This document shows, one piece after another, positions 1-37,560 of a stretch of 64,000 bases of DNA. This stretch comes from Leucoraja ocellata (lineage: Eukaryota), in contig JAWMAR010002360.1 of NCBI GenBank assembly GCA_036785375.1, positions 62,001-126,000 on the forward strand, written 5' to 3'. Made by a program: the position numbers and the translations under genes. Numbering within the stretch: position 1 is the stretch's first letter; every line of letters begins with the position of its first letter. The notes beneath the pieces are model-generated. The model was not told the DNA's origin, made no database searches, and saw nothing but the letters and a program-made list of their open reading frames with translations.

Positions 1-185
1 ATGATGAAGGTGATGACACGAAACAGCACTGCCCAGACGCACAACCACAAACGACCAAAGGCACTGGAGATGATATCCACACTTCCTCACAAGAGCCACA
101 AAGAGGCCAAAGAGTCCGCAGGCTAACGGAAAAGGGCCAAGAACTGCACGATGAGCAAGTAAGAAAGGTTGCACACCGTTTCAGT

Positions 186-3100
186 GTGAGCTACAAGAAG
201 TGGAAGGCTGTCATTAAGGACGCCAAAGGGGCGCTGAGTGGTCAATGCTCAAACAACCTGCTGAATGAACACATCACCAAGGTAAGCAATGCTTCAAAGA
301 ATCTGAACGCTGTTTATGAAGAGCTGAGACACATCGACATTCTAGATCATGACACACGTCGCAGAGTAGACACCTGTGAAGCAGTAACAAAGAAGATAAT
401 CAAAACGGCAAGAGGTTATCTAAACTCGGGAAAGAGTGAATGTCAAGTGGATGAAGAACAAGGTGTTAAAGATACAGAATCTGTGTTCAAGTCTGCAGCC
501 TCAGATAAAATGAGCATCAAATCTCACCGCACCAAATCCTCCCAGTCCTCTTCTCAAGGCAACTCAACAATCACATCCAGACATTCAAGCCAGTCTCCTG
601 CACACAGACTAGAAGCCGCTGCTGAAGTCGCAGCCAATGAAGCCACATTACAAGCGCTGCTAGAGCAAGAACAGGATATTATAGAACTTGAAAGACTTGA
701 GGCGGAAGATGCAGAGAGAAAAAGGGTGCTAGAGGCCAAACGCAGACAAATAGTGCGATTGGAGACAATAGGGAAGCTAAAGGCTGTCAAGGCACGACAG
801 CAAGTATATAAGCAGAGTGAATGCTCAGACGATGAAATAGACGAGCTGCTCTATCAACACGTCTCTCTGAAGGAGAAGAAGGAAGTCAACCAGGAAAGTA
901 ACCTGTCGAAGCATCACCCTCCACCACAAGCTATGACACTTCCAAAACAAGAAGATAGCACAGCAGCTCTTGTGAGAGTGTTTGCAGAGTCCATCAATGC
1001 GAGTCGTCTTCCTATACCGGAACCGTCAACGTTCAACGGCGACCCACTCAGATTCAATGACTGGAAGGTTTCCTTTCAGACATTAATTGACAAGAAAAAC
1101 TTACCAGGTGAAGAAAGGATATATTATCTGCGAAGGTATGTGGGTGGAGCTGCCAAGAAGGCCATAGTGAGTTACTTTCTGCTAGGCACAGAGTCAGCCT
1201 ATCATGCAGCGTGGACCATCCTAGAAGAGAGATATGGCAATCCATTCCTCATCGCCAAAGCCTTCAGAGACAAGCTTGATTCATGGCCCAAGATAAGCTC
1301 CAAAGGCAGTTTAGAACTTCAAGAACTCACTGACTTCCTTCGCAGCTGTGAGGCCGCCATGTCTCAGATTAGAGGTCTTGAGGTACTCAATGACTGCAAC
1401 GAGAATCAGAAAATGCTTGTTAAACTTCCAGACTGGCTGACCTCAAGATGGAACAGGAAAGTCATAAAAGTGGAAGAACAAAGTCACACGTTCCCAAGCT
1501 TCAGCCAATTCATCAAGTTCCTCACACGTGAAGCAAAAATTGCTTGCAACCTGATAACGTCCCTCTACGCTCTAAAACTAAGGGAAGTTGAGAAGAGCAA
1601 GGCTTCAATGAACAAAGGTCCTGGAGCAAAGGTATTGGTAACAAACTCTGATGAGAAGGCAGTCGCCACAAGCTGTGTGTTCTGTGAGAGGGAAGGTCAC
1701 AGTCTACACAAGTGTTATAAATTCATGGATGAGACGGTCTCTGAGCGAGTCAAGTTTGTTCAAGAAAGGAAGTTGTGCTTTGGCTGTCTGAAGTCTGGTC
1801 ATCGCTCAAAGGAAAGTGAAAACAGAATGATCTGCAATACATGTGAAAGGAGACATCCAACTTGCCTCCACGACAATCGCACCAAGGAAGGAAGGATGTT
1901 AACAAGGCCTGATGAAGCAAGAGACCGTGAGCAGTCAACGGAAGGCAAGATGAACCGATCACAAGATAAGACAACAAGAACCTCACCTGAGGCAACATCC
2001 AATAGAGTCATCCAGCATGTCAAAAACACTCATACGTCCACCATCATCCCAGTGTGGGTGTCAGCCACAAGTGAGCCTAATCGTGAAGTTCTTGTGTATG
2101 CACTTCTGGATACACAGAGTGACACAACCTTTCTCCTAGAAGACAATGCAAAAGCTCTACACGTGAAGACCGAACCAGTTCAGCTAAAGCTCTCCACAAT
2201 GGCTTCAAGAAACACAGTTGTGTCCTGTAGGAAACTGACTGGTCTACAAGTAAGAGGATTTTACTCAGACAAGATAATCCAGCTGCCAGTGACCTACACA
2301 AGAGAATTCATACCTGCAAACAGAGATCATATTCTCTCACCAGAGACTGCAATGGCATGGCCTCATCTCGAACACATCGCAGATGACATAGCTCCACATC
2401 AAAGCTGCGACGTCGGCTTACTAATTGGCTACAACTGTCCTCAAGCTCTCGTCCCAAGACAAGTGCTACCTGGTGAAGAAAATCAGCCCTTTGCACTGAA
2501 AACCGACTTGGGCTGGAGTGTAGTGGGTTATGGCAACCTATGTCTCGATTATGGAGATGCTATTGGAGTGAGTCACCAGGTTATCGTGAAGCAAGTGATA
2601 TCAGTTATTCAGTCCTCTTCAAACCTCACAAGCGAAGTGCATTATGTCTGTAGAACACAGATCAAGGAAGTAGTCTCACCTGCAGCTGTCATCATGGTGC
2701 TGGAAGCTGACTTTGTGGAAGGAATTTCAGAGGAAGGCAACATCTCTCAAGAAGAGCTCCGATTCCTGTCAAGGATGGAAAAAGGCATCAGGCGCAAGGA
2801 GGATGGTCACTATGAGATGCCACTGCCGTTTAAGAAAGAAATACCCAACTTACCAGACAACAAGATATGTGCCATCCATCGTCTAAGGTGCCTAGAAAGG
2901 AAGCTGAAAAGAAATGAACAGTATTACAAAGACTACAAGACCTTCATGGATGAGACCATAACCCGTGGAGATGCAGAAAATGTCTCACAAGAAGACGTTA
3001 GTAAAGCTCCAGCATGGTACATTCCCCACCATGGGGTGTATCATCCGCAAAAGCCTGGGAAAATTTGTGTCGTTTTTTACTGTTCCACGAGGTATCAAGA

Positions 3101-3269
3101 GACAGCCTTGAATGATCATCTCCTGACGGGTCCAGAGTTGACGAACACCTTGTTGGGAGTCCTTTGTCATTTTCGTAAAGGTCCAGTGGCGATCATGTGT
3201 GACATAGAACGCATGTTTCATCAGTTCCATGTAAAGGCAGAAGATCAGGATTACCTACGTTTCCTATGA
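186..3269 (+). pseudogene. BEL/Pao Gag-protease-RT(N-terminal) ORF, unit 1 (frame open from base 3; upstream ATG is ACG)
   Basis: Gag motif FNGDPLRFNDW, Zn knuckles CVFC..H..C / CFGC..H..(S) / CNTC..H...LH, protease ALLDTQSD, RT WYIPHHGV, LNDHLLTGP, CDIERMF; ends in TGA TAG. Confidence 0.92.
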
Positions 3270-3322
3270 TAGGAGAATGGAAATCTTGAAGCACAACCCT
3301 CCATCTATCAGATGAAAGTCGT

Positions 3323-4417
3323 TTGTTTGGTGCAGTTTCCTCTCCTGGCTGTGCCAACTTGGGACTCAAACACCTGGCCGCTGAAGGACGAGGACGCTTC
3401 AGTGAAGACACCATCCAATTCATCCAGAATAATATCTATGTGGATGATGGCTTGGCAAGTGTAGCATCTGAAAGGCAAGCAATCAAACTAGTGAAAGAAG
3501 CGAGAGAGCTATGTAGCACAGGCAAACTTCGGCTACATAAGTTCATCTCTAACAGCAAGGAAGTCCTAGCCACAATCCCTAATGAGGATTGTGCTGAAGC
3601 TGCCAAGGACCTGGACATGGCACTGGGAGAACAACACATGGATAGAGCACTCGGTGTCCAGTGGTGTGTGGCTTCTGACGAATTCCAGTTCAGGGTAATT
3701 GTCAAAGAAAATCCATTCACCCGAAGAGGAGTCTTGTCCACGGTTGCCTCAGTGTATGACCCGCTCGGATTTGTGGCACCCTTCATCTTGGTAGGAAAGC
3801 AGATCTTGCAGCAGATGTGTCGTGACAAGCTCAGTTGGGATGACACCTTACCAGATGACCTACCCCTGTGGGAATCTTGGCACCAAGACCTGAAAAACCT
3901 GGCTGGTGTGAAGATCGGGAGATGCTACGCTCCACCAAGTTTCAATGTCCAGCACTATGAGCTCCACCATTTCTCCGATGCCAGTGTGACGGGCTATGGA
4001 GTTTTCTCATATCTCAGAGCGGTCAGTACATCAGGTGAAGTCCACTGCACCTTAGTAATGGGAAAGTCAAGAGTCGCCCCTACTAAGGTGATGACCATAC
4101 CAAGACTAGAGCTGTCAGCAGCAGTGGTAGCTGTCCGCATCAGTGACATGCTCAAGAAAGAGCTCGAAGTAGAATGCCGTCAAGAAATCTTCTGGACTGA
4201 TTCAAAGGTCGTACTTGGATACATCAGTAATCAAGCCAGAAGATTCCACGTGTTCGTAGCAAACTGCGTGGAACGCATCAAGCGAAGCACAGAGTCTGCG
4301 CAATGGAGGCATGTAACTTCTGAGGAGAACCCAGCAGATCACGCCTCAAGAGGTCTCACAGCAGGACAACTTATAGCCTCCAAACCGGTTCACCTGGAGA
4401 GACCCATAGTTAGATAA
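3323..4417 (+). pseudogene. BEL/Pao RT C-terminus + RNase H, unit 1, frameshifted; integrase missing
   Basis: FGAVSSP, YVDD, SVYDPLG, LHHFSDAS, IPRLEL, FWTDS, ENPADHASRG; 1-nt deficit at ~3321 relative to the upstream frame. Confidence 0.92.
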
Positions 4418-4484
4418 TATTTTGAACTAATATTTTATATGCAGTATGTATGTCTCTAAGTTGTTCTAAGAAATCACATGTGAT

Positions 4485-4494
4485 TTGGTGGGAG
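4485..4494 (+). other. Polypurine-tract-like primer site (TTGGTGGGAG) before LTR; repeated in each unit
   Basis: Immediately 5' of the LTR-initial TG in all four forward units. Confidence 0.7.
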
Positions 4495-4893
4495 TGTAAC
4501 TGCCCCACATCGGCAGTTAGTTAAATTCTGAACCTCACGGTTTTTGGTTCCTACCTGAAATAGTAGTGTTCCTAAGGGGGGAACTAATTGCCGACTTAGT
4601 TTCCGGGGGGCACGGTTGTTGGCACACACAGAAGCCATGACTAAGAAGAAACCAAGAAATACCTCTTAAGTAGTAAGCAGTGGACGAGGTATGTTGTTTA
4701 TTTGCTTGGTTAGTGTGGTGTTGTGTTCTGTATGGACGTACATGCATGTATTTTGTAAACTGCATTTTTATTTTGTTTGTTTTTGTTTTTTGTTGCCTTG
4801 TTTTTGGCTCAGTTCTCACGGGTTGGTTGGAGCCGAAAATAAACCCCGTATTTAACCACGATCTCGGGCCTCGTGTACTACGTGGGAGCTACA
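4495..4893 (+). repeat. LTR copy 1 (399 bp, TGTAAC...GCTACA; AATAAA at 4838-4843)
   Basis: Boundaries are fixed by where copy 4 ends (21571) and where the inverted copy begins (26883); TG...CA termini. Confidence 0.93.
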
Positions 4894-5574
4894 GTGAGAA
4901 CTCGACTGCTCTGCATGAGTAGCCGAGGAGGACGTCACCAGACGGCAGCAGCCGAGAAGAGACGAACCATATCCATGCTGCGTGTGTATCTTCTACCACC
5001 GCCTACGCCGAAACACAAGCAGATCAAGCCCACAGGAAGGCCCAGGTGCCCCTAGTGTGAATATTGCTGTTAAGAAAACTCGTGTTTTGCACAAGAGACT
5101 GATATATTATCTACATTTTCATTTAATAAGTTGATGTTGTTATTTTCTACAACTAAAGGACTTTAAGTGTTTTGCACAAGAGACTGAGATATAATGTGCA
5201 TTTCATTTATGTTGTTTACTTACCTTTCCTTATTGAAGACCATTGATACTCACACTGTGTTGATATTGAGAATTTGTTTATTGATGGTTACACTGTAAAA
5301 ATCCTGTTAAAACATGCAGTACTCATAGTAATTTAAAGGTGCATTTCTGTTACTTAACAAGTGTTTAATGCATATGTAACTTACCTGTGGAAGAGTTGAT
5401 AGCTTTATTTGTCTAATTATCACTCATAGTGATTTAAGTTGATAACACTATAAAAATTATTTATTAATTAGGTACTTACTCAACATAAGAAAATATTAGA
5501 TTTAAACCAAACTAAAGTAAACCAAGTTTGAGCTTTCCCCTGAAAGTGACAGAGAAGATGATGAAGGTGATGAC

Positions 5575-8500
5575 ATGAAACAGCACTGCCCAGACGCACA
5601 ACCACAAACGACCAAAGGCACTGGAGATGATATCCACACTTCCTCACAAAAGCCACAAAGAGGTCAAAGAGTCCGCAGGCTAACGGAAAAGGGCCAAGAA
5701 CTGCACGATGAGCAAAGAAGAAAGGTTGCACACCGTTTCAGTGTGAGCTACGAGAAGTGGAAGGCTGTCATTAAGGACGCCAAAGGGACGCTGAGTGGTC
5801 AATGCTCAAACAACCTGCTGAATGAACACATCACCAAGGTAAGCAATGCTTCAAAGAATCTGAACGCTGTTTATGAAGAGCTGAGACGCATCGACATTCT
5901 AGATCATGACACACGTCGCAGAGTAGACACCTGTGAAGCAGTAACAAAGAAGATAATCAAAACGGCAAGAGGTTATCTAAACACGGGAAAGAGTGAATGT
6001 CAAGTGGATGAAGAACAAGGTGTTAAAGATACAGAATCTGTGTTCAAGTTTGCAGCCTCAGATAAAATGAGCATCAAATCTCACCGCACCAAATCCTCCC
6101 AGTCCTCTGCTCGTTCTCAAGGCAACTCAACAATCACATCCAGACATTCAAGCCAGTCTCCTGCACACAGACTAGAAGCCGCTGCTGAAGTCGCAGCCAA
6201 TGAAGCCACATTACAAGCGCTGCTAGAGCAAGAACAGGATATTATAGAACTTGAAAGACTTGAGGCGGAAGATGCAGAGAGAAAAAGGGTGCTAGAGGCC
6301 AAACGCAGACAAATAGTGCGATTGGAGACAATATGGAAGCTAAAGGCTGTCAAGGCACGACAGCAAGTATATAAGCAGAGTGAATGCTCAGACGATGAAA
6401 TAGACGAGCTGCTCTATCAACACGTCTCTCTGAAGGAGAAGAAGGAAGTCAACCAGGAAAGTAACCTGTCGAAGCATCACCCTCCACCACAAGCTATGAC
6501 ACTTCCAAAACAAGAAGATAGCACAGCAGCTCTTGTGAGAGTGTTTGCAGAGTCCATCAATGCGAGTCGTCTTCCTATACCGGAACCGTCAACGTTCAAC
6601 GGCGACCCACTCAGATTCAATGACTGGAAGGTTTCCTTTCAGACATTAATTGACAAGAAAAACTTACCAGGTGAAGAAAGGATATATTATCTGCGAAGGT
6701 ATGTGGGTGGAGCTGCCAAGAAGGCCATAGAGAGTTACTTTCTGCTAGGCACAAGAGTCAGCCTATCATGCAGCGTGGACCATCCTAGAAGAGAGATATG
6801 GCAATCCATTCCTCATCGCCAAAGCCTTCAGAGACAAGCTTGATTCATGGCCCAAGATAAGCTCCAAAGGCAGTTTAGAACTTCAAGAACTCACTGACTT
6901 CCTTCGCAGCTGTGAGGCCGCCATGTCTCAGATTAGAGGTCTTGAGGTACTCAATGACTGCAACGAGAATCAGAAAATGCTTGTTAAACTTCCAGACTGG
7001 CTGACCTCAAGATGGAACAGGAAAGTCATAAAAGTGGAAGAACAAAGTCACAAGTTCCCAAGCTTCAGCCAATTCATCAAGTTCCTCACACGTGAAGCAA
7101 AAATTGCTTGCAACCCGATAACGTCCCTCTACGCTCTAAAACTAAGGGAAGTTGAGAAGAGCAAGGCTTCAATGAACAAAGGTCCTGGAGCAAAGGTATT
7201 GGTAACAAACTCTGATGAGAAGGCTGTCGCCACAAGCTGTGTGTTCTGTGAGAGGGAAGGTCACAGTCTACACAAGTGTTATAAATTCATGGATGAGACG
7301 GTCTCTGAACGAGTCAAGTTTGTTCAAGAAAGGAAGTTGTGCTTTGGCTGTCTGAAGTCTGGTCATCGCTCAAAGGAAAGTGAAAACAGAATGATCTGCA
7401 ATACATGTGAAAGGAGACATCCAACTTGCCTCCACGACAATCGCACCAAGGAAGGAAGGATGTTAACAAGGCCCGATGAAGCAAGAGACCGTGAGCAGTC
7501 AACGGAAGGCAAGATGAACCGATCACAAGATAAGACAACAAGAACCTCACCTGAGGCAACATCCAATAGAGTCATCCAGCATGTCAAAGACACCCATACG
7601 TCCACCATCATCCCAGTGTGGGTGTCAGCCACAAGTGAGCCTAATCGTGAAGTTCTTGTGTATGCACTTCTGGATACACAGAGTGACACAACCTTTCTCC
7701 TAGAAGACACTGCAAAAGCTCTACACATGAAGAACGAACCAGTTCAGCTAAAGCTCTCCACAATGACTTCAAGAAACACAGTTGTGTCCTGTAGGAAACT
7801 GACTGGTCTACAAGTAAGAGGATTTTACTCAGACAAGATAATCCAGCTGCCAGTGACCTACACAAGAGAATTCATACCTGCAAACAGAGATCATATTCTC
7901 TCACCAGAGACTGCAATGGCATGGCCTCATCTCGAACACATCGCAGATGACATAGCTCCACATCAAAGCTGCGACGTCGGCTTACTAATTGGCTACAACT
8001 GTCCTCAAGCTCTCGTCCCAAGACAAGTGCTACCTGGTGAAGAAAATCAGCCCTTTGCACTGAAAACCGACTTGGGCTGGAGTGTAGTGGGTTATGGCAA
8101 CCTATGTCTCGATTATGGAGATGCTATTGGAGTGAGTCGCCAGGTTATCGTGAAGCAAGTGATATCAGTTATTCAGTCCTCTTCAAATCTCACAAGCGAA
8201 GTGCATTATGTCTGTAGAACACAGATCAAGGAAGTAGTCTCACCTGCAGCTGTCTTCAAGGTGCTGGAAGCTGACTTTGTGGAAGGAATTTCAGAGGAAG
8301 GCAACATCTCTCAAGAAGAGCTCCGATTCCTGTCAAGGATGGAAAAAGGCATCAGGCGCAAGGAGGATGGTCACTATGAGATGCCACTGCCGTTTAAGAA
8401 AGAAAGACCCAACTTACCAGACAACAAGATATGTGCCATCCATTGTCCCAGGTGCCTAGAAAGGAAGCTGAAAAGAAATGACCAGTATTACAAAGACTAC

Positions 8501-8833
8501 AAGACCTTCATGGATGAGACCATAACCCGTGGAGATGCAGAAAATGTCTCACAAGAAGACGTTAGTAAAGCTCCAGCATGGTACATTCCCCACCATGGGG
8601 TGTATCATCCGCAAAAGCCTGGGAAAATTTGTGTCGTTTTTTACTGTTCCACGAGGTATCAAGAGACAGCCTTGAATGATCATCTCCTGACGGGTCCAGA
8701 GTTGACGAACACCTTGTTGGGAGTCCTTTGTCATTTTCGTAAAGGTCCAGCGGCGATCATGTGTGACATAGAACGCATGTTTCATCAGTTCCATGTAAAG
8801 GCAGAAGATCAGGATTACCTACGTTTCCTATGA
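5575..8833 (+). pseudogene. BEL/Pao Gag-PR-RT, unit 2 (ATG present; +1 frameshift near 6753; 6 bp extra near 6110)
   Basis: ORFs 5575-6843 and 6923-8833; GGCACAAGAG versus GGCACAGAG in unit 1. Confidence 0.92.
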
Positions 8834-8886
8834 TAGGAGAATGGAAATCTTGAAGCACAACCCTCCATCTATCAGATGAAAGTCGT

Positions 8887-9981
8887 TTGTTTGGTGCAGT
8901 TTCCTCTCCTGGCTGTGCCAACTTGGGACTCAAACACCTGGCCGCTGAAGGACGAGGACGCTTCAGTGAAGACACCATCCAATTCATCCAGAATAATATC
9001 TATGTGGATGATGGCTTGGCAAGTGTAGCATCTGAAAGGCAAGCAATCAAACTAGTGAAAGAAGCGAGAGAGCTATGTAGCACAGGCAAACTTCGGCTAC
9101 ATAAGTTCATCTCTAACAGCAAGGAAGTCCTAGCCACAATCCCTAATGAGGATTGTGCTGAAGCTGCCAAGGACCTGGACATGGCACTGGGAGAACAACA
9201 CATGGATAGAGCACTCGGTGTCCAGTGGTGTGTGGCTTCTGACGAATTCCAGTTCAGGGTAATTGTCAAAGAAAATCCATTCACCCGAAGAGGAGTCTTG
9301 TCCACGGTTGCCTCAGTGTATGACCCGCTCGGATTTGTGGCACCCTTCATCTTGGTAGGAAAGCAGATCTTGCAGCAGATGTGTCGTGACAAGCTCAGTT
9401 GGGATGACACCTTACCAGATGACCTACCCCTGTGGGAATCTTGGCACCAAGACCTGAAAAACCTGGCTGGTGTGAAGATCGGGAGATGCTACGCTCCACC
9501 AAGTTTCAATGTCCAGCACTATGAGCTCCACCATTTCTCCGATGCCAGTGTGACGGGCTATGGAGTTTTCTCATATCTCAGAGCGGTCAGTACATCAGGT
9601 GAAGTCCACTGCACCTTAGTAATGGGAAAGTCAAGAGTCGCCCCTACTAAGGTGATGACCATACCAAGACTAGAGCTGTCAGCAGCAGTGGTAGCTGTCC
9701 GCATCAGTGACATGCTCAAGAAAGAGCTCGAAGTAGAATGCCGTCAAGAAATCTTCTGGACTGATTCAAAGGTCGTACTTGGATACATCAGTAATCAAGC
9801 CAGAAGATTCCACGTGTTCGTAGCAAACTGCGTGGAACGCATCAAGCGAAGCACAGAGTCTGCGCAATGGAGGCATGTAACTTCTGAGGAGAACCCAGCA
9901 GATCACGCCTCAAGAGGTCTCACAGCAGGACAACTTATAGCCTCCAAACCGGTTCACCTGGAGAGACCCATAGTTAGATAA
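8887..9981 (+). pseudogene. BEL/Pao RT C-terminus + RNase H, unit 2
   Basis: Same translation as unit 1. Confidence 0.92.
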
Positions 9982-10058
9982 TATTTTGAACTAATATTTT
10001 ATATGCAGTATGTATGTCTCTAAGTTGTTCTAAGAAATCACATGTGATTTGGTGGGAG

Positions 10059-10457
10059 TGTAACTGCCCCACATCGGCAGTTAGTTAAATTCTGAACCTC
10101 ACGGTTTTTGGTTCCTACCTGAAATAGTAGTGTTCCTAAGGGGGGAACTAATTGCCGACTTAGTTTCCGGGGGGCACGGTTGTTGGCACACACAGAAGCC
10201 ATGACTAAGAAGAAACCAAGAAATACCTCTTAAGTAGTAAGCAGTGGACGAGGTATGTTGTTTATTTGCTTGGTTAGTGTGGTGTTGTGTTCTGTATGGA
10301 CGTACATGCATGTATTTTGTAAACTGCATTTTTATTTTGTTTGTTTTTGTTTTTTGTTGCCTTGTTTTTGGCTCAGTTCTCACGGGTTGGTTGGAGCCGA
10401 AAATAAACCCCGTATTTAACCACGATCTCGGGCCTCGTGTACTACGTGGGAGCTACA
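10059..10457 (+). repeat. LTR copy 2
   Basis: Identical by eye to 4495-4893. Confidence 0.93.
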
Positions 10458-11306
10458 GTGAGAACTCGACTGCTCTGCATGAGTAGCCGAGGAGGATGTC
10501 ACCAGACGGCAGCAGCCGAGAAGAGACGAACCATATCCATGCTGCGTGTGTATCTTCTACCACCGCCTACGCCGAAACACAAGCAGATCAAGCCCACAGG
10601 AAGGCCCAGGTGCCCCTAGTGTGAATATTGCTGTTAAGAAAACTCGTGTTTTGCACAAGAGACTGATATATTATCTACATTTTCATTTAATAAGTTGATG
10701 TTGTTATTTTCTACAACTAAAGGACTTTAAGTGTTTTGCACAAGAGACTGAGATATAATGTGCATTTCATTTATGTTGTTTACTTACCTTTCCTTATTGA
10801 AGACCATTGATACTCACACTGTGTTGATATTGAGAATTTGTTTATTGATGGTTACACTGTAAAAATCCTGTTAAAACATGCAGTACTCATAGTAATTTAA
10901 AGGTGCATTTCTGTTACTTAACAAGTGTTTAATGCATATGTAACTTACCTGTGGAAGAGTTGATAGCGTTATTTGTCTAATTATCACTCATAGTGATTTA
11001 AGTTGATAACACTATAAAAATTATTTATTAATTAGGTACTTACTCAACATAAGAAAATATTAGATTTAAACCAAACTAAAGTAAACCAAGTTTGAGCTTT
11101 CCCCTGAAAGTGACAGAGAAGATGATGAAGGTGATGACACGAAACAGCACTGCCCAGACGCACAACCACAAACGACCAAAGGCACTGGAGATGATATCCA
11201 CACTTCCTCACAAGAGCCACAAAGAGGCCAAAGAGTCCGCAAGCTAACGGAAAAGGGCCAAGAACTGCACGATGAGCAAGTAAGAAAGGTTGCACACCGT
11301 TTCAGT

Positions 11307-14300
11307 GTGAGCTACAAGAAGTGGAAGGCTGTCATTAAGGACGCCAAAGGGGCGCTGAGTGGTCAATGCTCAAACAACCTGCTGAATGAACACATCACCA
11401 AGGTAAGCAATGCTTCAAAGAATCTGAACGCTGTTTATGAAGAGCTGAGACACATCGACATTCTAGATCATGACACACGTCGCAGAGTAGACACCTGTGA
11501 AGCAGTAACAAAGAAGATAATCAAAACGGCAAGAGGTTATCTAAACTCGGGAAAGAGTGAATGTCAAGTGGATGAAGAACAAGGTGTTAAAGATACAGAA
11601 TCTGTGTTCAAGTCTGCAGCCTCAGATAAAATGAGCATCAAATCTCACCGCACCAAATCCTCCCAGTCCTCTTCTCAAGGCAACTCAACAATCACATCCA
11701 GACATTCAAGCCAGTCTCCTGCACACAGACTAGAAGCCGCTGCTGAAGTCGCAGCCAATGAAGCCACATTACAAGCGCTGCTAGAGCAAGAACAGGATAT
11801 TATAGAACTTGAAAGACTTGAGGCGGAAGATGCAGAGAGAAAAAGGGTGCTAGAGGCCAAACGCAGACAAATAGTGCGATTGGAGACAATAGGGAAGCTA
11901 AAGGCTGTCAAGGCACGACAGCAAGTATATAAGCAGAGTGAATGCTCAGACGGTGAAATAGGCGAGCTGCTCTATCAACACGTCTCTCTGAAGGAGAAGA
12001 AGGAAGTCAACCAGGAAAGTAACCTGTCGAAGCATCACCCTCCACCACAAGCTATGACACTTCCAAAACAAGAAGATAGCACAGCAGCTCTTGTGAGAGT
12101 GTTTGCAGAGTCCATCAATGCGAGTCGTCTTCCTATACCGGAACCGTCAACGTTCAACGGCGACCCACTCAGATTCAATGACTGGAAGGTTTCCTTTCAG
12201 ACATTAATTGACAAGAAAAACTTACCAGGTGAAGAAAGGATATATTATCTGCGAAGGTATGTGGGTGGAGCTGCCAAGAAGGCCATAGAGAGTTACTTTC
12301 TGCTAGGCGCAGAGTCAGCCTATCATGCAGCGTGGACCATCCTAGAAGAGAGATATGGCAATCCATTCCTCATCGCCAAAGCCTTCAGAGACAAGCTTGA
12401 TTCATGGCCCAAGATAAGCTCCAAAGGCAGTTTAGAACTTCAAGAACTCACTGACTTCCTTCGCAGCTGTGAGGCCGCCATGTCTCAGATTAGAGGTCTT
12501 GAGGTACTCAATGACTGCAACGAGAATCAGAAAATGCTTGTTAAACTTCCAGACTGGCTGACCTCAAGATGGAACAGGAAAGTCATAAAAGTGGAAGAAC
12601 AAAGTCACAAGTTCCCAAGCTTCAGCCAATTCATCAAGTTCCTCACACGTGAAGCAAAAATTGCTTGCAACCTGATAACGTCCCTCTACGCTCTAAAACT
12701 AAGGGAAGTTGAGAAGAGCAAGGCTTCAATGAACAAAGGTCCTGGAGCAAAGGTATTGGTAACAAACTCTGATGAGAAGGCAGTCGCCACAAGCTGTGTG
12801 TTCTGTGAGAGGGAAGGTCACAGTCTACACAAGTGTTATAAATTCATGGATGAGACGGTCTCTGAGCGAGTCAAGTTTGTTCAAGAAAGGAAGTTGTGCT
12901 TTGGCTGTCTGAAGTCTGGTCATCGCTCAAAGGAAAGTGAAAACAGAATGATCTGCAATACATGTGAAAGGAGACATCCAACTTGCCTCCACGACAATCG
13001 CACCAAGGAAGGAAGGATGTTAACAAGGCCTGATGAAGCAAGAGACCGTGAGCAGTCAACGGAAGGCAAGATGAACCGATCACAAGATAAGACAACAAGA
13101 ACCTCACCTGAGGCAACATCCAATAGAGTCATCCAGCATGTCAAAAACACTCATACGTCCACCATCATCCCAGTGTGGGTGTCAGCCACAAGTGAGCCTA
13201 ATCGTGAAGTTCTTGTGTATGCACTTCTGGATACACAGAGTGACACAACCTTTCTCCTAGAAGACAATGCAAAAGCTCTACACGTGAAGACCGAACCAGT
13301 TCAGCTAAAGCTCTCCACAATGGCTTCAAGAAACACAGTTGTGTCCTGTAGGAAACTGACTGGTCTACAAGTAAGAGGATTTTACTCAGACAAGATAATC
13401 CAGCTGCCAGTGACCTACACAAGAGAATTCATACCTGCAAACAGAGATCATATTCTCTCACCAGAGACTGCAATGGCATGGCCTCATCTCGAACACATCG
13501 CAGATGACATAGCTCCACATCAAAGCTGCGACGTCGGCTTACTAATTGGCTACAACTGTCCTCAAGCTCTCGTCCCAAGACAAGTGCTACCTGGTGAAGA
13601 AAATCAGCCCTTTGCACTGAAAACCGACTTGGGCTGGAGTGTAGTGGGTTATGGCAACCTATGTCTCGATTATGGAGATGCTATTGGAGTGAGTCACCAG
13701 GTTATCGTGAAGCAAGTGATATCAGTTATTCAGTCCTCTTCAAACCTCACAAGCGAAGTGCATTATGTCTGTAGAACACAGATCAAGGAAGTAGTCTCAC
13801 CTGCAGCTGTCATCATGGTGCTGGAAGCTGACTTTGTGGAAGGAATTTCAGAGGAAGGCAACATCTCTCAAGAAGAGCTCCGATTCCTGTCAAGGATGGA
13901 AAAAGGCATCAGGCGCAAGGAGGATGGTCACTATGAGATGCCACTGCCGTTTAAGAAAGAAATACCCAACTTACCAGACAACAAGATATGTGCCATCCAT
14001 CGTCTAAGGTGCCTAGAAAGGAAGCTGAAAAGAAATGAACAGTATTACAAAGACTACAAGACCTTCATGGATGAGACCATAACCCGTGGAGATGCAGAAA
14101 ATGTCTCACAAGAAGACGTTAGTAAAGCTCCAGCATGGTACATTCCCCACCATGGGGTGTATCATCCGCAAAAGCCTGGGAAAATTTGTGTCGTTTTTTA
14201 CTGTTCCACGAGGTATCAAGAGACAGCCTTGAATGATCATCTCCTGACGGGTCCAGAGTTGACGAACACCTTGTTGGGAGTCCTTTGTCATTTTCGTAAA

Positions 14301-14390
14301 GGTCCAGTGGCGATCATGTGTGACATAGAACGCATGTTTCATCAGTTCCATGTAAAGGCAGAAGATCAGGATTACCTACGTTTCCTATGA
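11307..14390 (+). pseudogene. BEL/Pao Gag-PR-RT(N-terminal), unit 3
   Basis: 1027-aa ORF with the same motifs and TGA TAG end. Confidence 0.92.
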
Positions 14391-14443
14391 TAGGAGAATG
14401 GAAATCTTGAAGCACAACCCTCCATCCATCAGATGAAAGTCGT

Positions 14444-15538
14444 TTGTTTGGTGCAGTTTCCTCTCCTGGCTGTGCCAACTTTGGACTCAAACACCTGGCC
14501 GCTGAAGGACGAGGACGCTTCAGTGAAGACACCATCCAATTCATCCAGAATAATATCTATGTGGATGATGGCTTGGCAAGTGTAGCATCTGAAAGGCAAG
14601 CAATCAAACTAGTGAAAGAAGCGAGAGAGCTATGTAGCACAGGCAAACTTCGGCTACATAAGTTCATCTCTAACAGCAAGGAAGTCCTAGCCACAATCCC
14701 TAATGATGATTGTGCTGAAGCTGCCAAGGACCTGGACATGGCACTGGGAGAACAACACATGGATAGAGCACTCGGTGTCCAGTGGTGTGTGGCTTCTGAC
14801 GAATTCCAGTTCAGGGTAATTGTCAAAGAAAATCCATTCACCCGAAGAGGAGTCTTGTCCACGGTTGCCTCAGTGTATGACCCGCTCGGATTTGTGGCAC
14901 CCTTCATCTTGGTAGGAAAGCAGATCTTGCAGCAGATGTGTCGTGACAAGCTCAGTTGGGATGACACCTTACCAGATGACCTACCCCTGTGGGAATCTTG
15001 GCACCAAGACCTGAAAAACCTGGCTGGTGTGAAGATCGGGAGATGCTACGCTCCACCAAGTTTCAATGTCCAGCACTATGAGCTCCACCATTTCTCCGAT
15101 GCCAGTGTGACGGGCTATGGAGTTTTCTCATATCTCAGAGCGGTCAGTACATCAGGTGAAGTCCACTGCACCTTAGTAATGGGAAAGTCAAGAGTCGCCC
15201 CTACTAAGGTGATGACCATACCAAGACTAGAGCTGTCAGCAGCAGTGGTAGCTGTCCGCATCAGTGACATGCTCAAGAAAGAGCTCGAAGTAGAATGCCG
15301 TCAAGAAATCTTCTGGACTGATTCAAAGGTCGTACTTGGATACATCAGTAATCAAGCCAGAAGATTCCACGTGTTCGTAGCAAACTGCGTGGAACGCATC
15401 AAGCGAAGCACAGAGTCTGCGCAATGGAGGCATGTAACTTCTGAGGAGAACCCAGCAGATCACGCCTCAAGAGGTCTCACAGCAGGACAACTTATAGCCT
15501 CCAAACCGGTTCACCTGGAGAGACCCATAGTTAGATAA
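14444..15538 (+). pseudogene. BEL/Pao RT C-terminus + RNase H, unit 3
   Basis: YVDD, FSDAS, NPAD motifs. Confidence 0.92.
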
Positions 15539-15615
15539 TATTTTGAACTAATATTTTATATGCAGTATGTATGTCTCTAAGTTGTTCTAAGAAATCACAT
15601 GTGATTTGGTGGGAG

Positions 15616-16014
15616 TGTAACTGCCCCACATCGGCAGTTAGTTAAATTCTGAACCTCACGGTTTTTGGTTCCTACCTGAAATAGTAGTGTTCCTAAGGGG
15701 GGAACTAATTGCCGACTTAGTTTCCGGGGGGCACGGTTGTTGGCACACACAGAAGCCATGACTAAGAAGAAACCAAGAAATACCTCTTAAGTAGTAAGCA
15801 GTGGACGAGGTATGTTGTTTATTTGCTTGGTTAGTGTGGTGTTGTGTTCTGTATGGACGTACATGCATGTATTTTGTAAACTGCATTTTTATTTTGTTTG
15901 TTTTTGTTTTTTGTTGCCTTGTTTTTGGCTCAGTTCTCACGGGTTGGTTGGAGCCGAAAATAAACCCCGTATTTAACCACGATCTCGGGCCTCGTGTACT
16001 ACGTGGGAGCTACA
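15616..16014 (+). repeat. LTR copy 3
   Basis: Identical by eye to the other forward LTRs. Confidence 0.93.
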
Positions 16015-16863
16015 GTGAGAACTCGACTGCTCTGCATGAGTAGCCGAGGAGGATGTCACCAGACGGCAGCAGCCGAGAAGAGACGAACCATATCCATGCT
16101 GCGTGTGTATCTTCTACCACCGCCTACGCCGAAACACAAGCAGATCAAGCCCACAGGAAGGCCCAGGTGCCCCTAGTGTGAATATTGCTGTTAAGAAAAC
16201 TCGTGTTTTGCACAAGAGACTGATATATTATCTACATTTTCATTTAATAAGTTGATGTTGTTATTTTCTACAACTAAAGGACTTTAAGTGTTTTGCACAA
16301 GAGACTGAGATATAATGTGCATTTCATTTATGTTGTTTACTTACCTTTCCTTATTGAAGACCATTGATACTCACACTGTGTTGATATTGAGAATTTGTTT
16401 ATTGATGGTTACACTGTAAAAATCCTGTTAAAACATGCAGTACTCATAGTAATTTAAAGGTGCATTTCTGTTACTTAACAAGTGTTTAATGCATATGTAA
16501 CTTACCTGTGGAAGAGTTGATAGCGTTATTTGTCTAATTATCACTCATAGTGATTTAAGTTGATAACACTATAAAAATTATTTATTAATTAGGTACTTAC
16601 TCAACATAAGAAAATATTAGATTTAAACCAAACTAAAGTAAACCAAGTTTGAGCTTTCCCCTGAAAGTGACAGAGAAGATGATGAAGGTGATGACACGAA
16701 ACAGCACTGCCCAGACGCACAACCACAAACGACCAAAGGCACTGGAGATGATATCCACACTTCCTCACAAGAGCCACAAAGAGGCCAAAGAGTCCGCAAG
16801 CTAACGGAAAAGGGCCAAGAACTGCACGATGAGCAAGTAAGAAAGGTTGCACACCGTTTCAGT

Positions 16864-19800
16864 GTGAGCTACAAGAAGTGGAAGGCTGTCATTAAGGACG
16901 CCAAAGGGGCGCTGAGTGGTCAATGCTCAAACAACCTGCTGAATGAACACATCACCAAGGTAAGCAATGCTTCAAAGAATCTGAACGCTGTTTATGAAGA
17001 GCTGAGACACATCGACATTCTAGATCATGACACACGTCGCAGAGTAGACACCTGTGAAGCAGTAACAAAGAAGATAATCAAAACGGCAAGAGGTTATCTA
17101 AACTCGGGAAAGAGTGAATGTCAAGTGGATGAAGAACAAGGTGTTAAAGATACAGAATCTGTGTTCAAGTCTGCAGCCTCAGATAAAATGAGCATCAAAT
17201 CTCACCGCACCAAATCCTCCCAGTCCTCTTCTCAAGGCAACTCAACAATCACATCCAGACATTCAAGCCAGTCTCCTGCACACAGACTAGAAGCCGCTGC
17301 TGAAGTCGCAGCCAATGAAGCCACATTACAAGCGCTGCTAGAGCAAGAACAGGATATTATAGAACTTGAAAGACTTGAGGCGGAAGATGCAGAGAGAAAA
17401 AGGGTGCTAGAGGCCAAACGCAGACAAATAGTGCGATTGGAGACAATATGGAAGCTAAAGGCTGTCAAGGCACGACAGCAAGTATATAAGCAGAGTGAAT
17501 GCTCAGACGATGAAATAGACGAGCTGCTCTATCAACACGTCTCTCTGAAGGAGAAGAAGGAAGTCAACCAGGAAAGTAACCTGTCGAAGCATCACCCTCC
17601 ACCACAAGCTATGACACTTCCAAAACAAGAAGATAGCACAGCAGCTCTTGTGAGAGTGTTTGCAGAGTCCATCAATGCGAGTCGTCTTCCTATACCGGAA
17701 CCGTCAACGTTCAACGGCGACCCACTCAGATTCAATGACTGGAAGGTTTCCTTTCAGACATTAATTGACAAGAAAAACTTACCAGGTGAAGAAAGGATAT
17801 ATTATCTGCGAAGGTATGTGGGTGGAGCTGCCAAGAAGGCCATAGAGAGTTACTTTCTGCTAGGCGCAGAGTCAGCCTATCATGCAGCGTGGACCATCCT
17901 AGAAGAGAGATATGGCAATCCATTCCTCATCGCCAAAGCCTTCAGAGACAAGCTTGATTCATGGCCCAAGATAAGCTCCAAAGGCAGTTTAGAACTTCAA
18001 GAACTCACTGACTTCCTTCGCAGCTGTGAGGCCGCCATGTCTCAGATTAGAGGTCTTGAGGTACTCAATGACTGCAACGAGAATCAGAAAATGCTTGTTA
18101 AACTTCCAGACTGGCTGACCTCAAGATGGAACAGGAAAGTCATAAAAGTGGAAGAACAAAGTCACAAGTTCCCAAGCTTCAGCCAATTCATCAAGTTCCT
18201 CACACGTGAAGCAAAAATTGCTTGCAACCCGATAACGTCCCTCTACGCTCTAAAACTAAGGGAAGTTGAGAAGAGCAAGGCTTCAATGAACAAAGGTCCT
18301 GGAGCAAAGGTATTGGTAACAAACTCTGATGAGAAGGCTGTCGCCACAAGCTGTGTGTTCTGTGAGAGGGAAGGTCACAGTCTACACAAGTGTTATAAAT
18401 TCATGGATGAGACGGTCTCTGAACGAGTCAAGTTTGTTCAAGAAAGGAAGTTGTGCTTTGGCTGTCTGAAGTCTGGTCATCGCTCAAAGGAAAGTGAAAA
18501 CAGAATGATCTGCAATACATGTGAAAGGAGACATCCAACTTGCCTCCACGACAATCGCACCAAGGAAGGAAGGATGTTAACAAGGCCCGATGAAGCAAGA
18601 GACCGTGAGCAGTCAACGGAAGGCAAGATGAACCGATCACAAGATAAGACAACAAGAACCTCACCTGAGGCAACATCCAATAGAGTCATCCAGCATGTCA
18701 AAGACACCCATACGTCCACCATCATCCCAGTGTGGGTGTCAGCCACAAGTGAGCCTAATCGTGAAGTTCTTGTGTATGCACTTCTGGATACACAGAGTGA
18801 CACAACCTTTCTCCTAGAAGACACTGCAAAAGCTCTACACATGAAGAACGAACCAGTTCAGCTAAAGCTCTCCACAATGACTTCAAGAAACACAGTTGTG
18901 TCCTGTAGGAAACTGACTGGTCTACAAGTAAGAGGATTTTACTCAGACAAGATAATCCAGCTGCCAGTGACCTACACAAGAGAATTCATACCTGCAAACA
19001 GAGATCATATTCTCTCACCAGAGACTGCAATGGCATGGCCTCATCTCGAACACATCGCAGATGACATAGCTCCACATCAAAGCTGCGACGTCGGCTTACT
19101 AATTGGCTACAACTGTCCTCAAGCTCTCGTCCCAAGACAAGTGCTAACTGGTGAAGAAAATCAGCCCTTTGCACTGAAAACCGACTTGGGCTGGAGTGTA
19201 GTGGGTTATGGCAACCTATGTCTCGATTATGGAGATGCTATTGGAGTGAGTCGCCAGGTTATCGTGAAGCAAGTGATATCAGTTATTCAGTCCTCTTCAA
19301 ACCTCACAAGCGAAGTGCATTATGTCTGTAGAACACAGATCAAGGAAGTAGTCTCACCTGCAGCTGTCATCAAGGTGCTGGAAGCTGACTTTGTGGAAGG
19401 AATTTCAGAGGAAGGCAACATCTCTCAAGAAGAGCTCCGATTCCTGTCAAGGATGGAAAAAGGCATCAGGCGCAAGGAGGATGGTCACTATGAGATGCCA
19501 CTGCCGTTTAAGAAAGAAAGACCCAACTTACCAGACAACAAGATATGTGCCATCCATTGTCCCAGGTGCCTAGAAAGGAAGCTGAAAAGAAATGACCAGT
19601 ATTACAAAGACTACAAGACCTTCATGGATGAGACCATAACCCGTGGAGATGCAGAAAATGTCTCACAAGAAGACGTTAGTAAAGCTCCAGCATGGTACAT
19701 TCCCCACCATGGGGTGTATCATCCGCAAAAGCCTGGGAAAATTTGTGTCGTTTTTTACTGTTCCACGAGGTATCAAGAGACAGCCTTGAATGATCATCTC

Positions 19801-19947
19801 CTGACGGGTCCAGAGTTGACGAACACCTTGTTGGGAGTCCTTTGTCATTTTCGTAAAGGTCCAGCGGCGATCATGTGTGACATAGAACGCATGTTTCATC
19901 AGTTCCATGTAAAGGCAGAAGATCAGGATTACCTACGTTTCCTATGA
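16864..19947 (+). pseudogene. BEL/Pao Gag-PR-RT(N-terminal), unit 4 (recombinant type)
   Basis: 1027-aa ORF; 5' variants as in units 1/3, later variants as in unit 2. Confidence 0.92.
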
Positions 19948-20000
19948 TAGGAGAATGGAAATCTTGAAGCACAACCCTCCATCTATCAGATGAAAGTCGT

Positions 20001-21095
20001 TTGTTTGGTGCAGTTTCCTCTCCTGGCTGTGCCAACTTTGGACTCAAACACCTGGCCGCTGAAGGACGAGGACGCTTCAGTGAAGACACCATCCAATTCA
20101 TCCAGAATAATATCTATGTGGATGATGGCTTGGCAAGTGTAGCATCTGAAAGGCAAGCAATCAAACTAGTGAAAGAAGCGAGAGAGCTATGTAGCACAGG
20201 CAAACTTCGGCTACATAAGTTCATCTCTAACAGCAAGGAAGTCCTAGCCACCATCCCTAATGAGGATTGTGCTGAAGCTGCCAAGGACCTGGACATGGCA
20301 CTGGGAGAACAACACATGGATAGAGCACTCGGTGTCCAGTGGTGTGTGGCTTCTGACGAATTCCAGTTCAGGGTAATTGTCAAAGAAAATCCATTCACCC
20401 GAAGAGGAGTCTTGTCCACGGTTGCCTCAGTGTATGACCCGCTCGGATTTGTGGCACCCTTCATCTTGGTAGGAAAGCAGATCTTGCAGCAGATGTGTCG
20501 TGACAAGCTCAGTTGGGATGACACCTTACCAGATGACCTACCCCTGTGGGAATCTTGGCACCAAGACCTGAAAAACCTGGCTGGTGTGAAGATCGGGAGA
20601 TGCTACGCTCCACCAAGTTTCAATGTCCAGCACTATGAGCTCCACCATTTCTCCGATGCCAGTGTGACGGGCTATGGAGTTTTCTCATATCTCAGAGCGG
20701 TCAGTACATCAGGTGAAGTCCACTGCACCTTAGTAATGGGAAAGTCAAGAGTCTCCCCTACTAAGGTGATGACCATACCAAGACTAGAGCTGTCAGCAGC
20801 AGTGGTAGCTGTTCGCATCAGTGACATGCTCAAGAAAGAGCTCGAAGTAGAATGCTGTCAAGAAATCTTCTGGACTGATTCAAAGGTCGTACTTGGATAC
20901 ATCAGTAATCAAGCCAGAAGATTCCACGTGTTCGTAGCAAACTGCGTGGAACGCATCAAGCGAAGCACAGAGTCTGCGCAATGGAGGCATGTAACTTCTG
21001 AGGAGAACCCAGCAGATCACGCCTCAAGAGGTCTCACAGCAGGACAACTTATAGCCTCCAAACCGGTTCACCTGGAGAGACCCATAGTTAGATAA
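20001..21095 (+). pseudogene. BEL/Pao RT C-terminus + RNase H, unit 4
   Basis: YVDD, FSDAS, NPAD motifs. Confidence 0.92.
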
Positions 21096-21172
21096 TATTT
21101 TGAACTAATATTTTATATGCAGTATGTATGTCTCTAAGTTGTTCTAAGAAATCACATGTGATTTGGTGGGAG

Positions 21173-21571
21173 TGTAACTGCCCCACATCGGCAGTTAGTT
21201 AAATTCTGAACCTCACGGTTTTTGGTTCCTACCTGAAATAGTAGTGTTCCTAAGGGGGGAACTAATTGCCGACTTAGTTTCCGGGGGGCACGGTTGTTGG
21301 CACACACAGAAGCCATGACTAAGAAGAAACCAAGAAATACCTCTTAAGTAGTAAGCAGTGGACGAGGTATGTTGTTTATTTGCTTGGTTAGTGTGGTGTT
21401 GTGTTCTGTATGGACGTACATGCATGTATTTTGTAAACTGCATTTTTATTTTGTTTGTTTTTGTTTTTTGTTGCCTTGTTTTTGGCTCAGTTCTCACGGG
21501 TTGGTTGGAGCCGAAAATAAACCCCGTATTTAACCACGATCTCGGGCCTCGTGTACTACGTGGGAGCTACA
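21173..21571 (+). repeat. Terminal 3' LTR followed by putative TSD TGGTT (21572-21576)
   Basis: Similarity to the other units stops exactly at ...GCTACA. Confidence 0.93.
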
Positions 21572-21576
21572 TGGTT

Positions 21577-26883: not shown

Positions 26884-27150
26884 AACCAAATGGAGAACTC
26901 GTGAACAAAGTGCAAGAATTCATGAACCAAGTGGTGAACTCATGAACCAAGCGCGATAATTCATGAACCAAACGGAGAACTACTGAACCAAGTCGGTCAT
27001 TAATGAACCGAATGGAGAATTTGTGAACCAAGTGGGAAAATAATTAAACAATCCAAGTAATTAATGAACATAATTGTGATCTCATGACCGAAGTGGGAGA
27101 ATTCATTAACTTATCAGCTAACTAAACAAACGGGAGAATTCATGAAGTAG
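26884..27150. repeat. Degenerate 20-21 bp minisatellite with TGAACCAA core
   Basis: TGAACCAA or variants recur every 20-21 bp. Confidence 0.8.
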
Positions 27151-34718: not shown

Positions 34719-34719
34719 T

Positions 34720-35535: not shown

Positions 35536-35589
35536 TATTCCACACATGATGCCTGACCCACCAATTACTCCAGCACTGTTGTTCCTGAT

Positions 35590-37135: not shown

Positions 37136-37234
37136 CAAGATTCCAGAACCCTGAATTGAAAGAATCTCGAATGAAATATGTTAGGAAATATCTAATGCCA
37201 ATTAGGAAATACCAATTAAACTATAAATCTGGAT

Positions 37235-37387
37235 ATCTTTGGAGTATGGGAGGACCCCAGAACCTATGTGGAAAACACACTTGGTCACAGGAAGAGTATT
37301 CAAACTCTGTATGGATAACACATGGTGTCAGTTTCAAACCCAGGTATCTGGTGCTGTGAGGCAGCAACTCTACCACTGTGCTGCCCA
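37235..37387 (-). mobile_element. V-SINE (HE1-like) 5' part
   Basis: GCTGTGAGGCAGCAACTCTACCACTGTGCTGCCC is the reverse complement of a tRNA-like head. Confidence 0.65.
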
Positions 37388-37469
37388 ATCTTTCCACAAA
37401 CACTGAAACCCAAGAGAGGGTTTGAAACAGCGGCCTTACCTTAACGTCATCTCCATAAAGACTAGATCC

Positions 37470-37560
37470 TGAGACAATAGACAATAGGTGCAGGAGTAGG
37501 CCATTCGGCCCTTCGAGCCAGCACCGCCATTCACTGTGATCATGGCTAATCATCCACAAC
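37470..37560 (-). mobile_element. CR1 3' terminus
   Basis: (GACAATA)n tail + GGTGCAGGAGTAGGCCATTCGGCCCTTCGAG. Confidence 0.8.

Follow-up and report, generated by a model that had tools for sequence, protein, structure and literature searches.

A tandem array of a non-autonomous BEL/Pao retrotransposon joined by shared LTRs in the skate Leucoraja ocellata

How does a retrotransposon that has lost its integrase come to stand in a tandem array whose neighbouring units share one LTR? We investigated this question in a 64,000-nt stretch of Leucoraja ocellata DNA (assembly GCA_036785375.1, contig JAWMAR010002360.1, positions 62,001-126,000, forward strand), hereafter the window; its features are collected in Table 1. 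A preliminary description had claimed at least four units of about 5.56 kb with one LTR per junction and with neither spacer nor target-site duplication (TSD) between them. Self-BLAST (1-16014 against 5558-21571, 99.3% identity) and the positions of the LTRs confirmed four 5.56-kb BEL/Pao units, neighbours being joined by a single 399-bp LTR (LTR-to-LTR periods of 5564, 5557, and 5557). At all three inner LTRs the polypurine tract lies directly 5′ and the leader directly 3′, without spacer or TSD, and this absence of internal TSDs excludes independent or nested insertions. The forward LTRs, which had looked identical by eye, showed zero differences in 6/6 pairwise comparisons. The structure of the array as described thus stood, but its units are not identical: any two of them are separated by 9-40 substitutions, and two insertions (one of +1 and one of +6) are private to unit 2. 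Beyond the stretch originally described there is also a fifth LTR, in inverted orientation. Unit 1 is truncated by the window edge, and the left end of the array lies beyond the window.

Table 1. Features of the array and its 3′ flank (positions in the window)
Feature	Position	Strand	Remarks
Internal region, unit 1	1-4494	+	5′ part cut by window edge
Shared LTR 1	4495-4893	+	399 bp, TGT...ACA
Internal region, unit 2	4894-10058	+	5165 bp; private gag frameshift and private 6-bp insertion
Shared LTR 2	10059-10457	+	399 bp
Internal region, unit 3	10458-15615	+	5158 bp; serves as coordinate frame
Long frame, unit 3	11085-14390	+	stop-to-stop frame of 1101 codons; encodes Gag (with DUF1759 and Cys/His knuckles), protease, and the beginning of reverse transcriptase
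Reverse transcriptase breaks	14388-14444	+	two adjacent stop codons (14388-14393), frameshift near 14441-14444; common to four units
Second frame, unit 3	14444-15502	+	remaining reverse transcriptase (YVDD) and RNase H (Pfam PF05380)
Deletion junction	15497-15538	+	RNase H end fused in frame to ~10 integrase-tail residues
Polypurine tract	15608-15615	+	adjoins LTR 3
Shared LTR 3	15616-16014	+	399 bp
Candidate self-primer	15932-15940	+	9 nt, the first being the A of TCAGT, the one initiator-like motif in the LTR; 27 nt 5′ of the only AATAAA (15959-15964); in every LTR
Primer-binding position	16015-16023	+	no TGG; exact complement of 15932-15940
Internal region, unit 4	16015-21172	+	5′ part resembles units 1 and 3, middle resembles unit 2
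Terminal (3′) LTR 4	21173-21571	+	399 bp
TSD, 3′ copy	21572-21576	+	5 bp, TGGTT, then CAT as in minisatellite register
CR1-like LINE	21577-23510	-	5′-truncated; microsatellite tail adjoins TSD
Second CR1-like LINE fragment	23511-25682	-	endonuclease-reverse transcriptase; meets BEL stub over 4-5 bp microhomology
Inverted stub	25678-26484	-	807 bp, leader and gag start; 5-11 substitutions vs array units
Inverted LTR	26485-26883	-	1 base off forward LTRs; probable 5′ LTR of whole array
20-bp minisatellite target	26884-27035	-	first 5 bases (26884-26888) are TSD 5′ copy

The element is a non-autonomous deletion derivative of a BEL/Pao retrotransposon, with its integrase deleted and its reverse transcriptase (RT) broken. 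Its proposed BEL/Pao identity was borne out by matches to Pfam PF03564 and PF05380 in an order colinear with full-length relatives, the integrase tail lying 3′ of RNase H, and the 399-bp LTRs, their TGT...ACA ends, and the purine-rich tract directly upstream are BEL/Pao features (ICTV gives an LTR length of 0.2-1.2 kb and places a polypurine tract 5′ of the 3′ LTR). The element matches a little skate protein at 93% and a plaice protein at 89%. Compared with relatives, ~510-530 codons are missing at the deletion junction. When the sequence that follows RNase H in three relatives was searched against the whole window, two queries gave no match and one matched over its last 10-11 residues only, so that the integrase loss noted earlier holds. 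The same is true of the claim that every unit carries the same lesions: the stretches that contain the two stops, frameshift, deletion junction, and shortened 3′ end are letter-for-letter the same in 4/4 units. None of 104 retrieved proteins that carry the motif of the RNase H end has the junction, and in a deletion-junction protein search covering annotated frames of 205-655 residues, two of four candidates passed and neither has the junction.

The RT text resembles that of the zebrafish families NC-460 and NC-582, which are listed as Sinbad, and this match, made by eye against supplement text, suggests a Sinbad-type element; the Sinbad clade has meanwhile been split, and our protein tree of relatives included no labelled references. 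The skate copies are nested among teleost elements, which points to transfer between fish lineages. The element of the array shares with the Sinbad fish clade of BEL/Pao (Belpaoviridae) the Gag-PR-RT-RH-(IN) order, DUF1759, PF05380, and the 399-bp LTR, but differs in having no integrase, a broken RT, and no recognisable tRNA-type primer site. The last of these makes it a less typical family member and leaves its descent from the family untouched.

Variation among the units bears on how they multiplied. There are 45 variable sites in 4494 bp, of which 19 separate units 1 and 3 from units 2 and 4, three separate units 1 and 2 from units 3 and 4, and 12 are private to unit 2. The two-against-two splits are mutually incompatible, units 1 and 2 show 10 differences in one bin but none in another, and the points of exchange fall within the internal regions: the units are a recombination patchwork. 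Under a star-shaped history, 5000 simulations gave at most five two-against-two sites, and none reached 19. The patchwork and the 19-site split therefore argue for stepwise unequal exchange and against multiplication in one step, by rolling-circle copying of a one-LTR circle or by a read-through multimer integrated whole. Such a concatemer would account for identical LTRs and for an array lying within one TSD, this kind of copying may have produced a dimer as the first step, and work on plant tandems considers these routes; yet identical starting units should show star divergence, and for the four units in view the one-step origin is contradicted unless later conversion rewrote most of their sequence. 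We regard it as very improbable. Recombination, one of the routes originally proposed, thus stands, whereas rolling-circle and read-through copying as the origin of these four units find no support, nor do crossovers confined to the LTRs, the exchange points being internal.

No selection was visible in this variation. In the long frame, 32 of 38 changes are non-synonymous (dN/dS ~1.5-1.9), with no synonymous excess, and the units decay neutrally. At the 23 amino-acid sites that distinguish unit 2 from units 1 and 3, the departure from relatives lies in one lineage at eight, in the other at 12, and is ambiguous at three. Domestication of the long Gag-protease frame was rejected, there being no purifying selection between units and unit 2 being frameshifted. 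The array is dead repetitive DNA, and nothing in it points to a function for the host.

Variation is lowest around the LTRs. The 1397 bp centred on the LTR in units 2-4 hold 2 of the 45 variable sites (P ~0.012 under uniform scatter, for an interval chosen post hoc and sites that are non-independent), and four identical LTRs have P ~0.018. Plain unequal exchange does not predict this pattern; copying through cDNA might.

The two probable ends of the array can be compared. The inverted LTR has the same 5-bp flank, TGGTT, as the last LTR (chance ~0.001 per site), and the minisatellite register runs on for three bases past it. Given this match, the inverted LTR and its 807-bp stub (26,883-25,678) probably represent the 5′ end of the array itself, which an inversion has moved; if so, a single TSD (21572-21576 and, on the minus strand, 26884-26888) encloses the whole array, in agreement with the single integration claimed earlier. 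The two LINEs between the ends are CR1-like, the one adjoining the TSD by its tail and domain layout. Alternatively, the inverted LTR and stub could stem from another copy of the family that inserted independently. The seven private differences in the 807-bp stub and the one in its LTR would fit this, as would a target preference repeating the flank, TGGTT recurring every 20 bp in the minisatellite. Such an insertion, however, requires a second, oppositely oriented copy of the minisatellite at 21572, whereas the minisatellite has no other match in the window, and the 8-mer occurs six times in non-array DNA on both strands, three of them inside the minisatellite; we consider it improbable.

On the reading that the inverted LTR is the 5′ end, a single base out of 399 distinguishes the outer LTRs. 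Unit divergence alone predicts 2.8 differences, and 10-14 would be expected (P < 0.001) had the 1.3-1.7% of the protein branch accrued in place, a figure derived from a protein branch length to which selected changes also contribute. The departures that the units share at conserved columns are, moreover, few (5/142; median of three among 119 relatives), which speaks against the account favoured below. The outer LTRs are thus nearly identical although the shared damage appears to be older, and helper enzymes, as the preliminary description had supposed, were probably needed for integration.

The account that we favour, and hold to be somewhat more probable than its negation, combines one helper-driven insertion, a dimer made by recombination, stepwise unequal exchange, neutral decay, and a later inversion. 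Enzymes supplied by an intact relative would have copied a Sinbad-type element with integrase already lost and RT broken and inserted it a single time, within a 20-bp minisatellite of the skate genome, where the 5-bp duplication is seen. LTR-LTR recombination at or soon after insertion would then have produced a dimer with one shared LTR, and unequal crossing-over or gene conversion inside units may have brought growth and patchy homogenisation. Finally, the 5′ end would have come to lie beside the 3′ end through an inversion and through LINEs that inserted at the 3′ edge, events whose junctions are visible and whose order is presumed.

Units might instead have been added singly, as helper-made cDNA from diverged members of the non-autonomous family, recombining free of integrase as in Tf1, Ty1, and Ty5. 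Integrase-less Tf1 yields single-LTR tandems that switch source within RT or IN, like the mosaics here (passages of PMC11042837); LTR, primer site, and leader are far less variable than the coding part; and unit 2 differs from units 1 and 3 by ~0.7-0.8%, comparable to the divergence of the array from the outer stub (7-12 of 1207 bases). Against this, helper Gag and RT would have to be available in the germ line time and again, with no sister copies shown, and the alternation of units 1 and 3 with units 2 and 4 (the former two agree at every base over 1700 bp and differ by 0.2% overall) is explained in one step by duplication of a dimer. We therefore think this route unlikely, though it is the strongest competitor to insertion followed by unequal exchange.

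The 0.2% between units 1 and 3 is also within the allelic range, so that the assembler could have placed two haplotypes of a shorter array in tandem, or could have unrolled a repeat cycle formed by dispersed copies. Polishing of collapsed repeats can create mosaics, and locus L001 presents an assembler-made internal-LTR-internal order (one LTR, identical 91-bp ends). However, four distinct units and the stub as a fifth type imply at least two units per haplotype, positions 1-27,000 contain no N and both TSD copies are local, and the differences include CpG-type transitions (11/45) and only one single-base insertion, which makes an artefact rather improbable.

Tandems with shared LTRs have been described in yeast, flies, plants, and kangaroos, with the same structure and mechanism in flies and plants (PMC11899658 and 10.1101/158386). 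Rice TLI1/TLI2, TRIM arrays, Drosophila tandems, and kangaroo centromeric arrays share with the skate array the LTR(n)-internal(n-1) structure, one 5-bp TSD, high identity, and defectiveness (PMC11899658, 10.1101/158386, PMC6934838, in part), so that ours is a BEL/Pao case, in a cartilaginous fish, of an already known class. Unlike those arrays, it has a 5′ end displaced by inversion and an internal mosaic with invariant LTRs; its variation and both flanks allow mechanisms to be ranked, which plant studies, in the parts available, could not do. Tf1 cDNA (by Rad52 single-strand annealing), Ty1, and Ty5 likewise form single-LTR tandems of mosaic units without needing integrase (PMC11042837, in part), but their RT is intact in cis, whereas that of the skate element is broken in every unit and its cDNA would need a helper.

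Two further labels in the preliminary description found no support. The array had been placed next to an IgM cluster; the nearest IgM-type exons lie ~34 kb away across LINE-rich DNA, the window holds constant-region exons only and no match to an RSS, and the link was dropped. It had also been called a macrosatellite, a term for many kb-sized units whose copy number varies between individuals; here four units lie within the window and the left end lies beyond its edge.

Priming of the element may be unusual. The bases after the LTR are complementary at 9/9 positions to LTR sequence that begins at the predicted transcript start, and this 9-nt word occurred in 26 of 20,000 shuffled LTRs. The TGG that would match the CCA end of a tRNA is absent after the LTR, although a half tRNA might prime instead; an Rfam scan of LTR and leader gave one match, below its cut-off (E 0.19), and no tRNA genes were found. 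This layout hints that the element starts its own copying without a host tRNA, by Tf1-like self-priming from a predicted start site. Tf1, Tj1, and sushi (Gypsy) and TAR and Houba (Copia) similarly have bases after the 5′ LTR that complement an LTR stretch at the predicted mRNA start (passages of PMC4600332 and PMC6317226). The skate element belongs to another superfamily, and its start site and cleavage are putative. The self-primer match is 11 nt in Tf1 and 9 nt here. In L001, a distant relative and the only one with DNA, a 7-nt match with different middle bases has the same layout, at a presumptive LTR end and with a fold that does not favour the pairing, and so offers weak support; a bacterial-genome scan gave one locus out of 223 pattern matches. 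More broadly, and only tentatively, Sinbad-type elements of fish and marine invertebrates might self-prime from the mRNA 5′ end, a further independent origin of tRNA-free priming outside Gypsy/Copia, and the array might have grown by cDNA recombination with the cis-acting LTR-primer region kept constant, as a vertebrate counterpart of the integrase-independent pathway of Tf1. ICTV describes BEL/Pao as having an 18-nt tRNA-Arg or tRNA-Gly primer site and their replication as poorly understood, and excerpts of PMC554778 and PMC9094657 contain nothing on priming; the self-priming layout, if true, would alter this tRNA-primed description of the family.

A self-comparison of the window matched 1-16,014 to 5,558-21,571 at 99.3% identity. 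The four forward LTRs (399 bp each) were identical in all six pairs, the unit periods were 5564, 5557 and 5557 bp, and all three inner junctions ran from polypurine tract through LTR to leader with no intervening bases, which bears out the shared-LTR tandem with one LTR per junction, the lack of a spacer and the LTR identity claimed in the preliminary description. No N bases occur across 1-27,000. Unit 1 opens within gag at the window edge, and the left end of the array lies beyond the window. Tandems with shared LTRs occur commonly in Drosophila (10.1101/158386, in the part available), as they do in plants, with kangaroo and yeast cases also cited (PMC11899658, likewise in part); the skate array is a new member of this class. 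The name macrosatellite is unproven, with four units only.

The long frame (1101 codons, with DUF1759) is open in units 1, 3 and 4 and frameshifted in unit 2; the second frame contains PF05380, and its best protein matches were little skate (93%) and plaice (89%) among the best 120 of 2558 passing proteins. The units are colinear with full-length relatives across Gag, protease, RT and RNase H, after which the sequence jumps in frame to ~10 residues of integrase tail, with ~510-530 codons missing relative to those relatives. RT carries two adjacent stops (14388-14393) and a frameshift near 14441-14444, and these stretches are letter-for-letter the same in 4/4 units, as had been claimed for the lesions. 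By eye, the RT text is similar to that of zebrafish families which the supplement text of PMC3118150 lists under Sinbad. A relative protein, P0124, matches closely on both sides of the deletion junction and has the integrase region between; judged by sequence, it is a close integrase-bearing relative.

A tree was built from 47 rows: unit 3, L001 (a relative with DNA) and the first 45 of 119 covering relatives. In it, the window and little skate proteins paired (100/95) with plaice as sister (96/87), and the named members among the tree relatives of this group were teleosts. Compared with relative proteins P0001 and P0002, the second frame placed the skate copies among teleost BEL/Pao proteins (89% to the plaice element). 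This protein-level tree hints that the element may have passed horizontally between bony and cartilaginous fish. The contig L001 (1-9015) belongs to a Sedimenticola MAG; it is a BEL/Pao element of animal type whose assembly took the form of a single-LTR circle with identical 91-bp ends, and is probably host contamination in GTDB. Its LTR start, TGTAACTGC, is the same as that in the window; a 239-codon frame (4231-4950) lies in its leader, along with five 48-nt repeats.

Across the 4494 bp common to all four units there were 45 substitution sites, 19 of which split units 1 and 3 from 2 and 4, and three of which split 1 and 2 from 3 and 4; the private sites numbered 12 in unit 2, five in unit 4, four in unit 3 and two in unit 1. 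Unit relationships shift along the unit: in five successive bins, units 1 and 2 differed at 10, 3, 10, 10 and 0 sites, and units 3 and 4 at 0, 3, 10, 9 and 6. Since 5000 simulated runs of a star-shaped history that allowed for CpG hot spots never gave more than five two-against-two sites, against 19 seen, the units were not made simultaneously. This tells against the proposed rolling-circle or read-through origin of four units at once; the incompatible splits along the unit mark the units as recombinants and uphold multimerisation by recombination. The main rival is addition of units by Tf1-like cDNA recombination (PMC11042837, in the part available), which would explain the uniformity of the LTR region (2/45 variable sites among units 2-4 in 1397 bp around the LTR, P ~0.012, post hoc; four identical LTRs, P ~0.018), a uniformity that tells against a purely chromosomal history. 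The array may also be an assembly artefact, either a dimer whose two haplotypes were falsely joined in tandem or an assembly cycle that was unrolled, L001 itself being an assembled single-LTR circle. Changes in the long frame were non-synonymous in 32/38 cases (expected synonymous share 22-27%), so this frame is under no purifying selection. Both lineages had departures of their own: of 23 sites, 8 departed in one lineage and 12 in the other, with 3 unresolved.

TGGTT ends the 5′ flank of the inverted LTR and directly follows the last forward LTR. A 20-bp minisatellite with units continuing TGGTT-CAT makes up the 5′ flank, the 3′ flank is TGGTT-CAT and then a LINE tail, and the frequency of TGGTT in non-array DNA is 0.001. 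Two LINE fragments, which we take to be CR1-like, fill the 4.1 kb between array and stub, and the stub is joined to one of them over 4-5 bp of microhomology. The matching flanks are most simply read as a single insertion that left a 5-bp TSD and was followed by an inversion, in which case a reciprocal junction should lie left of the window; to take the inverted LTR as an independent insertion of its own is less economical. The leader of every unit and the stub share a 44-bp imperfect direct repeat (89%; 10646-10773).

The outer LTRs differ at one of 399 bases, compatible with the 2.8 differences predicted from unit divergence (P = 0.23). The protein branch (0.035) suggested 1.3-1.7% and hence 10-14 differences (P < 0.001), although the conversion of branch length is rough. 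The outer LTRs being too alike for that age, the shared damage probably predates insertion, with RT and integrase supplied by a helper, as had been suspected.

The LTR is not directly followed by TGG. Its positions 317-325 form a word exactly complementary to the 9 bases that come next after the LTR, and this word was present in 26/20,000 shuffled LTRs. The start of the word, 27 nt upstream of the only AATAAA, is the A of TCAGT, which occurs once in the LTR and is presumably an initiator-like motif. For a predicted transcript starting at this A, mean pairing probability was 0.90, 0.71, 0.24 and 0.03 with 25, 100, 200 and 400 nt of leader, and the region folded no better than shuffles (z = -0.38), so that modelled folding lends partial support to primer pairing. 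L001, the sole relative with DNA (54% identity in RT-RH), has TCAGT 24 nt upstream of its only AATAAA and, 113 nt further on, a 7-nt complement after ACA with different middle bases, its LTR end being unproven; pairing was not favoured in its fold (0.01), and in the 2 kb scanned, matches to upstream DNA were as long or longer at eight other CA positions. The predicted skate layout is that of self-priming Tf1/Tj1 (PMC4600332, in part). Self-priming is listed for Tf1/sushi, Tcn1 and the Copia TAR group (PMC6317226, in part), and the ICTV profile of Belpaoviridae gives tRNA priming for the family (PMC8742986). No report of a self-priming BEL/Pao element was found in the literature outside subscription journals and Repbase entries, nor any mention in the available parts of PMC3601003, PMC6934838, PMC5443660, PMC3118150 and PMC554778; it may be known. 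The skate element is a candidate for tRNA-free priming, on which the possible novelty of the case rests. The target minisatellite (26884-27035) has a 9-base word in common with the complement of the primer-site region, which may reflect chance or homology-guided targeting.

Features of the array and of the rest of the window
Feature	Position	Strand
Forward LTRs (starts)	4495, 10059, 15616, 21173	
Second frame, unit 3	14444-15502	
Inverted LTR with 807 bp of leader/gag (stub)	26883-25678	minus
Three IgM-type constant exons, secretory tail and transmembrane exon	55468-63283	minus
Dense CR1-like LINE copies, at least 3 subfamilies	21577-25682, 34712-37559, 39281-41124, 44899-55216	
Esterase-type ORF1 of CR1-like LINE	51996-52874	
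GIY-YIG frame (we take it to be, probably, a Penelope-like fragment)	42595-43092	minus
GC-rich 22-bp minisatellite, ~24 copies, open in all six frames	33261-33794	

The immunoglobulin constant exons matched an Amblyraja radiata protein at 93-96% and were closest to mu chains (PDB); the most 5′ IgM constant exon and the V, D and J segments lie beyond the window, and nothing ties the array to IgM, next to which the preliminary description placed it. Some CR1-like copies are 97-99% alike, which points to recent activity. At 23505-23515 the 5′ end of one LINE is fused directly into the middle of another that lacks its 3′ part, by insertion-linked deletion or template switch.
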